A stretch of 15,336 nucleotides of DNA. Origin: Gemmatimonadota bacterium (GTDB lineage: Bacteria; Gemmatimonadota; Gemmatimonadetes; Longimicrobiales; RSA9). The notes under the pieces were generated by a model that was not told where the DNA came from, searched no databases, and worked only from the letters and a program-made list of their open reading frames with translations. The position numbers and the translations under genes are program-made. The stretch's first letter is position 1. Every line of letters begins with the position of its first letter. Positions 8,904 to 11,723 of the stretch are shown here, piece by piece. Location of the stretch: contig JBBDRO010000104.1 in assembly GCA_040905425.1 (NCBI GenBank), positions 1-15,336 on the forward strand, in the 5' to 3' direction.

Positions 8904-9602
8904 ATGGCTGGGTTCGAGGACGAGATCGAGGACGAGGTCGAGGACCAGACAGTGGACGCGGTGCCCTATCCCGTGGCCGTGGACATCAAGGCCGCTACCC
9001 ACGAGCGGAACCGCCTCACGGCGGCCTTCCGCTTCTTCCTGGCCCTGCCGCACATCTTCCTGGTGGGCGGGCCGGTGGCCATGGTCTTTGCCACCGACTG
9101 GGGCTCGGACTCCCACCTGGAGTTCGGCTACGGCTCGGCCGGCCTGCTCGGCGCCGTGGCCGCCCTGGTGGCGGTGATTGCCTGGTGCTTCATTGTCTTC
9201 ACCACCCGCCACCCGGACGGGCTCTGGAAGCTGGCCGCCTTCTACCTGCGCTGGCGCGTGCGGGCCATTGCCTACATGACCCTGCTGCGTGACGAGTACC
9301 CCCCGTTCGGCGACGGCGAGTATCCCGCCGAACTGGTGCTCTCCATGCCGGAGGGCGAGCGTGACCGGGTGAGCGTCTTCTTCCGCCTCTTCCTGGCCAT
9401 TCCCCACCTCTTCATCCTGTGGTTCCTGAGCCTGGCGTGGGGCGTCACCACGGCCATTGCCTGGGTGGTGATCCTGCTGACGGGGCGCTACCCGGAAGGG
9501 CTCTACGGCTTTGCCATCGGCGTGCTGGCCTGGAGCATCCGCGTGGAGGCCTACCTGCTGCTGCTGCGCGACGAGTACCCGCCGTTCACGCTGCGCGCGT
9601 GA
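8904..9602 (+). CDS. DUF4389 domain membrane protein with two domain copies (232 aa)
   Basis: Strong RBS GGAGGTGA. Two repeats of R..v.FR.FLA.PH...FT/LTGR.P.GL...RV.AY..LLRDEYPPF. Confidence 0.9.
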   Translation: MAGFEDEIEDEVEDQTVDAVPYPVAVDIKAATHERNRLTAAFRFFLALPHIFLVGGPVAMVFATDWGSDSHLEFGYGSAGLLGAVAALVAVIAWCFIVFTTRHPDGLWKLAAFYLRWRVRAIAYMTLLRDEYPPFGDGEYPAELVLSMPEGERDRVSVFFRLFLAIPHLFILWFLSLAWGVTTAIAWVVILLTGRYPEGLYGFAIGVLAWSIRVEAYLLLLRDEYPPFTLRA

Positions 9603-9703
9603 GGTGAGGGGGGCGGCGCACGTGAGGTGAGGGCTGCGCGCGTGAGGTGAGGGTGGCGCGCGTGAGGTGAGGGTGGCGCGCGTGAGGTGAGGGTGGCGCG
9701 CGT
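9594..9703. repeat. Five-copy ~20-bp tandem repeat (CGCGCGTGAGGTGAGGGTGG) starting across the DUF4389 stop codon
   Basis: The core CGTGAGGTGAGGG occurs at 9598, 9621, 9641, 9661 and 9681; the last three units are identical. Confidence 0.95.
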
Positions 9704-9761
9704 CGCCGCGCACACCCGGCGCGGCAGCCCGCCCCCCGTTGTCCCGCGCGGCGCCCATGCC

Positions 9762-9929
9762 CTAGTGATGTGTCGCAGAAGTCACGTTGCATTCGGATCC
9801 GGCTGCATCCCAGCCAGCGTCGTTGCTCGTCGTCGGCATAGCTACGGCTATGCTCTCCTCCTCGCGCCTAGCTGGCCGGGCGCATCCGGCCCCTCGGTGC
9901 GACACGGGACTTCTGCGACACATCACTAG
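9762..9929. mobile_element. MITE-like element 1 (168 bp) with a perfect 22-bp terminal inverted repeat
   Basis: CTAGTGATGTGTCGCAGAAGTC (9762-9783) is the exact reverse complement of GACTTCTGCGACACATCACTAG (9908-9929). TA at both ends, no coding capacity, nested internal palindromes. Confidence 0.8.
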
Positions 9930-10089
9930 TGTACTGACCCACGAGTTCGCCGGCATTCGAAGCCCGCTGCATCCCACATCGCTGCGTTGCTCCTCCTCGA
10001 CGTAGCGCTGCTACGCCTTCGTCGTCGCGCCTTGCGCTGCGGGCGCATCGAACTTCTCGGTGCTCGCCGACTCATGGGTCAGTACACTA
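9927..10089. mobile_element. MITE-like element 2 (163 bp) with a 19/20 terminal inverted repeat, sharing a TA with element 1
   Basis: TAGTGTACTGACCCACGAGT (9927-9946) pairs with ACTCATGGGTCAGTACACTA (10070-10089) with one mismatch. The internal core 9953-10063 is colinear with 9789-9900 of element 1. Confidence 0.8.
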
Positions 10090-10093
10090 ACTT
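10088..10093 (+). promoter_or_regulatory. Putative -10 box TAACTT 7 nt upstream of the ATPase ATG (leaderless start)
   Basis: TAACTT ccgcgct ATG with no Shine-Dalgarno. The same hexamer appears in the predicted promoter at 1470-1475. Confidence 0.55.
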
Positions 10094-10100
10094 CCGCGCT

Positions 10101-11723
10101 ATGGGCCAGACGCGAGTAGACCTGCTGCACCTCCTGGAGGACCTCCGCGACGCCTATCCCGGCGCGCTGGAGGAGACCATCGTGGGCGAGACGGTGGCCA
10201 ACGCCCTCGACTCCGGTGCCGACCGCATCTCCTTCAGCGCCGATCCCGCCGCCGCCACGCTCACCATCGTGGACGACGGCGCCGGCATGTCGCGCGCCCA
10301 GCTGCGCCGCTTCCACGACCTGGCGGCTACCTCCAAGCGCCGGGGACGGGGGATCGGCTTCGCGGGCGTGGGGATCAAGCTGGCGCTGCTGGCGTGTGAG
10401 GACGTGGTCACGGAATCACGTCGCGGGCAGAAGTCGCTTGCAACTTCGTGGCGCCTGGCCTCGAAGCAGAAGGCACCGTGGTCGTGGGTGGACGCCCCGG
10501 GGCTGGTCGGCGGCGAGAGCGGCACCGCGGTGCGGCTGCGCCTGAGCAACGCGCTCGGCCCGCTGCTCGACCCCGGCTGGCTGGCCACCACCCTGCTGCG
10601 CAGCTTTGCCCCCCTCTTCGATCCCGCCTTCGATGACATCCTGGAGAGCGCCTACGGCCAGGGGGTGGTCTTCGAGGTGAACGGCCAGCGCGTGCCCCGG
10701 GCCTCCATGGCGCACCTGCGCATCCTGGGCGACGCGGGCATCACCGATCGCGCCGAGGTGGCGGCCCGCCTGCCGCGCAAGCGGAAGCCCTCCGCGCAGG
10801 GCTGGCTGGCGCGCGCCGACGCGCCGCTGCCGGAGGAGGAGCGCGGCGTGGCCGTGGCCACCCTGGGCAAGGTCATCAAGCGCGGCTGGGACTGGCTGGG
10901 CGTGGCGCCCACGGAGGCCGACCGCATCAGCGGGCTCATCGAGGCGCCCGGCCTGGCCGAGGCGCTCACCCTGAACAAGGGTGACTTCATCCGCACCGGC
11001 GCGCGCGGCGCCACCTACCTGGCCTATCGCAAGATCCTGCAGGAGGCCGTGAGCCAGCAGCTGGCGGCGTGGGGGGACGCGCCCGAGCCGAAGCCCGCCC
11101 GCCGCCCGCGCACGCGCCGCATGGAGAAGGACCTGGAGCGGGTGCTGGTGGACATGGCCGGAGACTTTCCGCTCATCGGTTCGCTGGTGGAGCGGCGCCG
11201 GGGCGGGCAGCGGCGCATTGCCTTCGGCGGGGGCGGGACGCCGGCGGACGGCTGGGCGCCGGGCGCGGCGCTCGAGACCACGCCCTCCCCGGATCCGGAC
11301 TCAAGCGACGGTCCCGCTTCACCCTCGCCGCCTGGCGATGCCGGCTCCGCGGACTCCGCCACATCCGCCGGCCCCGAGGGGCCGGGGTCCGCTCCGGACG
11401 GCGGAGCGGACGCCGCGCCTGCCGGCGCGGACGCCGGCGGCCTGCCCGAGCGCAAGGGCAGAAAGCAGCGCGGGCGCTACGGGCTGGAGATTGCCTTCGA
11501 GAGCCGCGGCCCCGACGCCGAACTGGCGCGCCTGGTGGAGTCCACCGTGCGGGTCAACGACGCCCACCCCGCCTACCGCCGGGCGCTGGCCGCCCGCTCC
11601 GACGGCTACCACATTGCGCTGGGCGTGGCCATGGCGCTGGCGCCGCTGGCCGCCGAGCCGGCGGCCGCGCACCGCTTCATCACGGCCTTCCTGCGGCGCT
11701 GGGGGGAGGCGGCGGAGGGGTGA
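10101..11723 (+). CDS. GHKL-fold ATPase (HATPase_c_3 / prokaryotic MORC-like), 540 aa
   Basis: Bergerat motifs ETVANALDSG, DDGAGM, SK...GFAGVGIK and GTAV, then an S5-like middle region, a P/S/A/G/D linker and a C-terminal VRVNDAHPAY module. The ORF-track extension to 9987 lies inside element 2. Confidence 0.88.
   Translation: MGQTRVDLLHLLEDLRDAYPGALEETIVGETVANALDSGADRISFSADPAAATLTIVDDGAGMSRAQLRRFHDLAATSKRRGRGIGFAGVGIKLALLACEDVVTESRRGQKSLATSWRLASKQKAPWSWVDAPGLVGGESGTAVRLRLSNALGPLLDPGWLATTLLRSFAPLFDPAFDDILESAYGQGVVFEVNGQRVPRASMAHLRILGDAGITDRAEVAARLPRKRKPSAQGWLARADAPLPEEERGVAVATLGKVIKRGWDWLGVAPTEADRISGLIEAPGLAEALTLNKGDFIRTGARGATYLAYRKILQEAVSQQLAAWGDAPEPKPARRPRTRRMEKDLERVLVDMAGDFPLIGSLVERRRGGQRRIAFGGGGTPADGWAPGAALETTPSPDPDSSDGPASPSPPGDAGSADSATSAGPEGPGSAPDGGADAAPAGADAGGLPERKGRKQRGRYGLEIAFESRGPDAELARLVESTVRVNDAHPAYRRALAARSDGYHIALGVAMALAPLAAEPAAAHRFITAFLRRWGEAAEG

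Follow-up and report, generated by a model that had tools for sequence, protein, structure and literature searches.

Two abutting IS630-type MITEs with different ends and a conserved hairpin core in a Gemmatimonadota genome

RESULTS

Two elements abut between two genes

The window (the whole stretch of DNA that was analysed, 15,336 nucleotides) is positions 1 to 15,336 of contig JBBDRO010000104.1, from a Gemmatimonadota bacterium (Longimicrobiales; assembly GCA_040905425.1) whose genome, G000, amounts to 4.12 Mb in 115 contigs, with 70.5% GC and 96.7% completeness. Flanked on one side by a DUF4389 gene (8904-9602) and on the other by a gene that begins at 10101 and encodes a HATPase_c_3 domain, two short elements, el1 and el2, lie in the order ...CC-TA-[el1]-TA-[el2]-TA-ACTT.... 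An earlier, sequence-only reading of the window had proposed this layout, and on inspection it proved correct. The features are as follows.

9763-9764, no strand: left TA of el1, presumed target duplication; flank C-TA-G
9765-9926, plus strand (model sense): el1, a 162-nt MITE of subfamily A; 6 full copies; 151.2 bits with covariance model R1
9765-9787, plus strand: left terminal inverted repeat of el1 (inverted repeat I1); shares 15 of 18 bases with the end of the insertion sequence at L288:501-1639
9789-9900, plus strand: core of el1, with blocks GCATTCG, CTGCATCCC, CGTTGC, the TAGC..GCTA tip, CGCGCCTAGC, GGGCGCATC and CTCGGTGC
9904-9926, plus strand: right terminal inverted repeat of el1 (inverted repeat I1), 96% complementary
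9927-9928, no strand: TA common to el1 and el2, the presumed right duplication of el1 and left duplication of el2
9929-10087, plus strand: el2, a 159-nt MITE; ends single-copy in the genome; 166.7 bits with R1
9929-9955, plus strand: left terminal inverted repeat of el2 (inverted repeat I2), 83% complementary
9953-10063, plus strand: core of el2, with blocks GCGTTGC (9984-9990), CGCGCCTTGC (10026-10035) and GGGCGCATC (10041-10049)
10061-10087, plus strand: right terminal inverted repeat of el2 (inverted repeat I2)
10088-10089, no strand: right TA of el2; flank C-TA-A

The arms of el1 measure 26 nt and are 96% complementary (9762-9787 and 9904-9929), and those of el2 measure 29 nt and are 83% complementary (9927-9955 and 10061-10089). 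Each element folds end to end into one long hairpin on both strands (-96.5 and -103.9 kcal/mol for el1, -78.5 and -96.9 kcal/mol for el2; RNA parameters), and the 112-nt alignment of the interiors (9789-9900 and 9953-10063) has 72.3% identity, so that the hairpins and the near-aligned interior blocks of the sequence-only reading both hold. Its statement that the ends differ needs to be softened: beyond TAGTG they are indeed different sets, but a count by eye finds agreement at about 13 of 25 positions, and they are thus not wholly unrelated. Just two open reading frames overlap el1 and el2, one of 80 aa with a GTG start and one that extends the neighboring gene's frame upstream, neither of which is plausible; the two are short, inverted-repeat-bounded elements devoid of coding capacity. 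A small peptide near the hairpin tip, prompted by triplet periodicity, was rejected by eye, because the classes differ in length by 11 nt and have no common frame. Motifs for sigma-54 and sigma-70 promoters, IHF, dif and attC were dropped after a check by eye only.

The el1/el2 junction is spanned into the downstream gene by a 1,261-nt contig from run X1 and a 1,259-nt contig from run X2. The product of that downstream gene (10101-11723) is a protein of 540 aa whose N terminus carries a HATPase_c_3 (GHKL ATPase) domain. The start codon is 12 nt past el2, and no Shine-Dalgarno-like sequence is visible. On the other side, a 20-nt unit (approximately GCGCGCGTGAGGTGAGGGCG) is repeated 5.4 times in tandem at 9593-9703, with 91% match. 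The array starts at the stop codon of the DUF4389 gene, and each unit holds TGA triplets.

Copies in the window's genome

The el1 type (subfamily A) is present in six full copies at different loci (C104, C88, two on C19, C5 and C103) that are 98.8 to 100% identical, and since further fragments sit at four contig ends (C6, C82, C67 and C68), its true copy number is higher than that counted. A second subfamily, B, about 87% identical to A, has three full copies (C61, C100 and C7) and several partial ones. The ends of A and B are separated by paired changes, present in both arms, which agrees with the earlier suggestion that the termini evolve in this manner. No second copy of the ends of el2 was found in this genome, and a distant-mode blastn search of plasmid and phage collections with el2 returned no match in either. 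At two loci (C8:53417-53543 and C31:37043-37157), the core occurs without recognizable matching ends.

Intact copies are flanked by TA, mostly as C-TA-G; all full copies of the el1 type have the flanks C-TA-G ... C-TA-G/N, and the recently active copies always have full ends and TA flanks. Only the flanks of el2 (CTA... and ...TAA) rule out a longer duplication than TA. From the flanks alone, mobility of el1 and el2 with a 2-bp target duplication would be predicted. No empty-site or single-element allele was recovered from the four metagenome runs X1 to X4, whose short Logan contigs break at the repeat.

Ends match those of IS630-family insertion sequences

The sequence-only reading had pointed to IS630-type elements on the basis of the TA flanks, and the ends bear this out: IS630-family elements of relatives have the termini TA-GTGTAGTG...CACTACAC-TA. 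One example, located by a pattern search within the family, is a TA-flanked insertion sequence of 1,139 bp in genome G014 (L288:501-1639), with ends TAGTGTAGTGTGGC(A/C)... and a 376-aa open reading frame containing DDE_3 and HTH_23/29/32 domains, the layout of the IS630 family. By manual count, 15 of the 18 bases after TA are identical between its end and that of el1. Its interior is nearly all coding and, as judged by eye without alignment, bears no likeness to the MITE core. The same insertion sequence is carried by G018, and in G027, an IS630-type element and a MITE have common TAGTGT(A/C)GTGTCC ends. We conclude that el1 and el2 are IS630-type MITEs.

In the window's 96.7%-complete assembly, there was no PF13358 match indicative of an intact IS630 transposase. 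The only IS630 trace is on contig C2 (ca. 60586-61230, minus strand), which starts with TAGTGTAGTG and is frameshifted and truncated; the remnant transposase frame has about 40% identity to the G014 element over residues 18 to 211. Repeats are often left unassembled, and the lack of a transposase in the assembly is therefore not proof of its absence. For the GCAGCCCGTGG class of ends (see below), no partner was found among the IS630 loci of G027.

The core is a covarying hairpin

We aligned 18 sequences from the same order, five of them from genomes flagged as unpublished (G015, G016 and G018). The alignment describes one long hairpin of 54 pairs, in which both sides have changed at 38 pairs, compared with 23.5 in shuffles, and 91.6% of cells are paired, compared with 73.0% in shuffles and 32 to 43% in slid controls. 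None of 500 shuffles reached the observed value for either paired cells or double changes, and within the long helix, double changes occur in 35 of 44 pairs. The hairpin pattern is thus confirmed as far above chance. Across 86 unique elements, the most conserved columns are CATCC, GCGTTGC, the TA..TA tip, GCGCCTTGC and GGCGC, and the least conserved are the ends.

The two strands are not equivalent. The reverse complement of the model sense is the more stable strand in 81 of 82 elements with RNA parameters (mean difference, 13.4 kcal/mol) and in 76 of 82 with DNA parameters. In the near-tip helix, where C-G to G-C swaps distinguish el1 from el2, the reverse-complement strand has tandem G-A/A-G mismatches and the model strand has pyrimidine-pyrimidine mismatches (all judged by eye). 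The model strand, for its part, has three conserved U-G pairs.

Such features could be expected of a structured RNA that serves the host or neighboring genes, as an mRNA 3′-end stabilizer, a processing site or a regulator, and that rides on MITEs. The strong covariation, the invariant asymmetric internal loops and the conserved U-G pairs all fit this reading, as does the position of many copies just after genes, where they would be cotranscribed. It is also the usual reading of Correia, ERIC and REP elements (see also PMC3733652). Nevertheless, we consider it quite unlikely here. The conserved U-G pairs are on one strand and the more stable fold is on the other; the comparison with Rfam that had been proposed as a check on the sequence-only reading gave no match for 9400-10400 (cmscan, both strands, E up to 1); and a scan revealed no promoter-like or terminator-like site at 9400-10300. 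Two further points against it, from mutations and from gene contexts, are given below.

The core is widespread

A covariance model, R1, was built from the 18-sequence alignment; its stems covary, and it finds matches across the order, in 62 of 151 genomes (22 of 50 in family f1, 35 of 50 in f2 and 4 of 50 in f3). A scan for a core pattern, with one genome per species, gave at least 122 stretches, 80 of them listed as loci. R1 confirms 70 of these 80 listed, pattern-selected loci, from records labeled with eight phyla (Acidobacteriota, with many Vicinamibacterales, Gemmatimonadota, Actinomycetota, Pseudomonadota, Desulfobacterota, Myxococcota, Planctomycetota and Kiritimatiellae), although labels of metagenome-assembled genomes may be wrong and the core pattern preselects for the core. 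Because both pattern and model weight the core, its conservation among the distant members is partly built into the search. Among the listed carriers is an isolate, Desulfosarcina variabilis, with 49% GC, and the loop blocks are fixed across genomes of 49% to 71% GC. One genome contains 133 exact matches to a 20-nt core pattern. The core is therefore not a local feature but a multiphylum superfamily with a very wide distribution.

A record labeled Azospira oryzae contains a core-only copy of about 100 nt (L073:288-390), directly 3′ of a TAA stop codon. An 8-nt stem (AAGGGGCA/TGCCCCTT) closes this copy instead of long transposon ends.

Ends and cores vary as separate modules

At least three or four classes of ends surround the core, beginning TA-GTG..., TA-GCAGCCCGTGG..., TA-AGGGCCCGCG... 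and TA-AGTAC.... Over 3,486 pairs of elements, mean identity is 0.65 for cores and 0.43 for ends, and the core is the more alike of the two in 94% of pairs. Rows of this comparison that involve window:9762-9929:- are an artifact, el1 having been aligned there in reverse, and are disregarded. The unusual claim of the sequence-only reading, that here the interior is kept while the ends drift, is thus upheld well beyond the two elements on which it was based. So is its proposal that the ends are swappable: in six pairs, cores that are at least 85% identical have ends at most 45% identical (in L113 and L106, for instance, 0.92 and 0.41), and the reverse discordance also occurs (ends 0.84 and core 0.58 in L108 and L126). 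The core of el2 itself is 90% identical to that of L002, from the unpublished genome G015, with ends only 42% identical. Ends and cores have probably been reshuffled between lineages.

Copies decay evenly, and shared variants avoid the core blocks in one genome

Private (singleton) mutations were counted apart from variants common to several copies. In G027, an exact 20-nt pattern identified 53 unique copies; with the pattern itself left out of the tally, singletons per nucleotide came to 0.32 to 0.33 in the ends, 0.40 to 0.46 in three conserved blocks of 11 to 23 nt, 0.60 in a fourth block of 5 nt, 0.58 in the variable stem and 0.36 in the tip. Shared variants per nucleotide were distributed quite differently (4.8 in the ends, 4.05 in the stem, 3.5 in the tip and 0.45 to 1.4 in the blocks), such that these lineage-level variants avoid the blocks some 4- to 10-fold. 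For 58 copies in G061, found by full-length BLAST, singletons ranged from 0.55 to 1.10 over all regions (0.55 to 0.72 in the core blocks and 0.64 to 0.83 in the ends). Shared variants per nucleotide in G061 came to 4.25 and 1.55 in the two ends, 6.45 in the left core block, 9.29 in the tip and 2.0 to 3.35 in the other blocks, and the contrast between core and ends is not clean.

Within the limits of small counts per region and of copies still intact enough to be found, copies in both genomes decay evenly after insertion. This argues against a host function at each site, and likewise against the structured-RNA reading: the core collects private mutations as frequently as the ends. The pattern of shared variants in G027, in turn, argues for selection on propagation. 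Together, these observations suggest that the core is kept by selection on spreading and not by per-site host function, although with respect to "function" the evidence says only that the core is kept in lineages that propagate.

Alternatively, the core might have no function at all, having spread horizontally from a recent common ancestor, with ends that diverge faster as they track their transposases and with arms that are kept by hairpin-templated repair. Horizontal spread of MITEs is known, paired end changes are expected from coevolution with transposases, and even decay after insertion is what this explanation would predict. Yet the stems have turned over repeatedly (the 35 of 44 double changes noted above) while the loop blocks stayed fixed over a wide range of GC content, and the shared variants of G027 avoid those very blocks. 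Moreover, the conserved bulges and mismatches speak against repair, because repair that restores pairing would erase them. We regard this explanation as very unlikely.

Probable insertion at CTAG and at stop codons

CTAG is about 12-fold underrepresented in the window's genome (884 sites versus approximately 11,000 expected from base composition), and 511 of the 884 sites (58%) are found where an open frame of 100 codons or more ends. When 113 element ends were examined, a coding-like frame reached 35 of them, and in 28 of these 35, the TA and the element's first base (G or A) were in stop-codon phase; the other two phases accounted for 4 and 3. (These figures supersede an earlier count with an unclean control, in which 23 of 128 ends were in this phase and the shifted phases gave 6 and 21.) An element that enters a TAG or TAA stop codon would rebuild the stop, and such landing would be harmless.

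Abutting pairs with a common TA are found elsewhere, as a same-type pair in G010 (L004) and as mixed-type pairs in G027 (L010/L230 and L244). The sequence-only reading had supposed that insertion is targeted to the end of a sibling. We find no need for this: CTAG is rare and is regenerated, as C-TA-G, at every element end, so that some elements should come to abut even if siblings are not recognized. By our own estimate, one abutting pair per ca. 20 insertions, with the elements supplying ca. 20 of the 884 CTAG sites, is not surprising.

Arrays, orientation and the possibility of a single-stranded route

In G027, near-identical units of the GCAGCCCGTGG class form tandem arrays of three to five units (L021:491-1345, L022:350-1095 and L023:349-875), with periods of 171, 249 and 174 nt, respectively; the arrays occupy the gap from a stop codon to the following start codon. 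The unit junctions read ...GGGCTG-G(G)-GCAGCC... and contain no TA, from which it follows that the arrays arose by amplification and not by repeated insertion. L022 and many other G027 loci (e.g., L249, L224 and L234) carry a long variant with an AT-rich insert of about 78 to 90 nt in the left arm. This insert contains two small palindromes (approximately GTAAAGACAACATTAC and ATGTATAGTATACAT), with GCTTCGCT on both sides, and may be a nested microelement or an operator- or promoter-like cassette.

Element orientation in G027 is regional: 24 plus and 3 minus at 1.42 to 3.6 Mb, 5 plus and 14 minus at 3.65 to 4.47 Mb, and 3 plus and 11 minus at 0 to 0.55 Mb. It agrees with the sign of the GC skew at 46 of 62 sites in G027 but at only 18 of 42 in G053 and 10 of 17 in the window's genome, and a replication-strand bias was rejected as a general property for this reason; a bias apparent in G061 was discarded as the product of an incomplete set of hits. 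A rule relative to neighboring genes fared no better. In tandem-gene contexts, co-oriented and opposed elements number 30 and 7 in G027 (arrays included), a bias not repeated in G053 (9 and 7) or in a sample of mixed genomes. In the latter, elements in same-sense tandem, opposite-sense, convergent and divergent contexts numbered 14, 19, 12 and 11, and this lack of preference relative to flanking genes is the second point against the structured-RNA reading.

Plain double-stranded cut-and-paste transposition does not predict the strand asymmetry or the regional orientation in G027. REP and REPIN elements are mobilized by RAYT transposases, and one might suppose that the core is likewise an independent small mobile hairpin, moving by a REP/REPIN-like single-strand route and captured by, or settled between, varied ends, in which case the IS630-type ends would be secondary shells. 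The strand asymmetry, the orientation in G027 and the TA-less arrays keep this explanation alive, and it would also account for the discordance between cores and ends and for the core-only copies (such as C8:53417-53543 and the Azospira copy after a stop codon). We nonetheless find it unlikely. Core-only copies may be mere decayed MITEs, recently active copies always come with full ends and TA flanks, the orientation pattern is absent from G053 and the window's genome, and the latter contains no RAYT-type gene (PF01797). The fit to GTAG/CGTC REPs, which are described as 20 to 40 bp long with 8- to 9-bp stems starting with A-T pairs (PMC3733652), is also poor.

DISCUSSION

We think it probable that el1 and el2 are MITEs moved by IS630-type transposases and composed of exchangeable ends and a conserved cis-acting hairpin core that aids propagation. 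On this explanation, both elements would be nonautonomous and would be moved in trans by IS630-family (Tc1/mariner-type) transposases, which would insert at TA, preferably within CTAG, and duplicate the TA. Because el2 is the old, unique element and el1 the young one, el1 was probably inserted beside a resident el2. The single-copy, diverged el2 would have landed first, at ...CC-TA-ACTT, where its left flank and first base would have made a new CTAG; the recently active el1 could then have entered this site, leaving one common TA. The outer module would be a class-specific pair of transposase-recognition ends. The inner module would be the hairpin core of about 110 nt, whose stems covary and whose internal-loop blocks (CATCC, GCGTTGC, GCGCCTTGC and GGCGC) are nearly invariant. 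Presumably, the core acts in cis to raise the element's chance of propagation, most likely when folded as a single strand or as a cruciform. We know of no aspect of IS630 transposition that requires an internal hairpin.

A bolder version, which we advance tentatively and consider less likely than not, would make the core a portable "propagation module," a structure of single-stranded DNA (or RNA) whose invariant bulges would be recognized by a factor present in many phyla. The module would boost or license the spread of any transposon ends around it and would have been swapped between end classes. If so, these elements would represent a new, modular class of nonautonomous element in bacteria, and the module may even be mobile by itself.

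Whichever version applies, the elements matter for annotation: they reach more than 100 copies in some genomes, land exactly on stop codons and break assemblies. The kind of element, an IS630-type MITE, is known. For the core, the literature searched, including passages of a MITE census (PMC11602168) and of a survey of GTAG/CGTC REPs (PMC3733652), gave no published description, although the supplementary MITE catalogues of the census might list members.

RUP of pneumococcus and the Correia elements are IS630-related bacterial MITEs. According to PMC11602168, ERIC belongs with them, as MITEEc1_IS630 in ISfinder. Like el1 and el2, these elements are about 100 to 170 nt long, flanked by TA, noncoding, multicopy and able to form a long hairpin; they often lie just 3′ of genes and are presumably moved in trans by an IS630/Tc1-mariner-type transposase. 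They differ in that ERIC, RUP and Correia are each confined to a genus or family and defined by their ends, whereas here one core is found with at least three to four end classes in eight phyla (going by record descriptions).

REP and REPIN elements offer a second comparison. They too are small palindromes after genes, sometimes nested in longer palindromes, and they form single-stranded hairpins with strand-specific unpaired tags; REPs carry a GTAG or CGTC tag (PMC3733652). However, REPs have no TA duplication, and the present core, at about 110 nt, has different conserved blocks. Size and layout do not fit (the tag was compared by eye), and no PF01797/Y1 match was found in the window's genome. 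We therefore do not place el1 and el2 among the REPs.

MITEs are usually regarded as passive deletion products defined by the ends that transposases recognize. The present family departs from that view: whereas its ends vary, its structured interior persists across phyla, and the mutation pattern suggests selection at the time of spreading. If confirmed, this would establish that a dedicated cis-acting module can be part of a bacterial MITE, and so compact a sequence might improve IS630/mariner-type vectors. A precedent for a role of the interior is the rice Stowaway MITE Ost35, which is likewise of the Tc1/mariner superfamily: with Osmar transposases, its interior enhances transposition (Yang et al. 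2009, in PMC3660474), and when its ends were experimentally replaced by those of a different element, activity was kept or increased (PMC3660474). Ost35 is eukaryotic, and its enhancer was demonstrated by experiment, whereas an enhancer role for the present core is one that we only infer; conversely, neither a covarying hairpin nor cross-phylum conservation is reported for Ost35. If the role of the core is confirmed, el1, el2 and their relatives would be a natural counterpart to the engineered Stowaway result.
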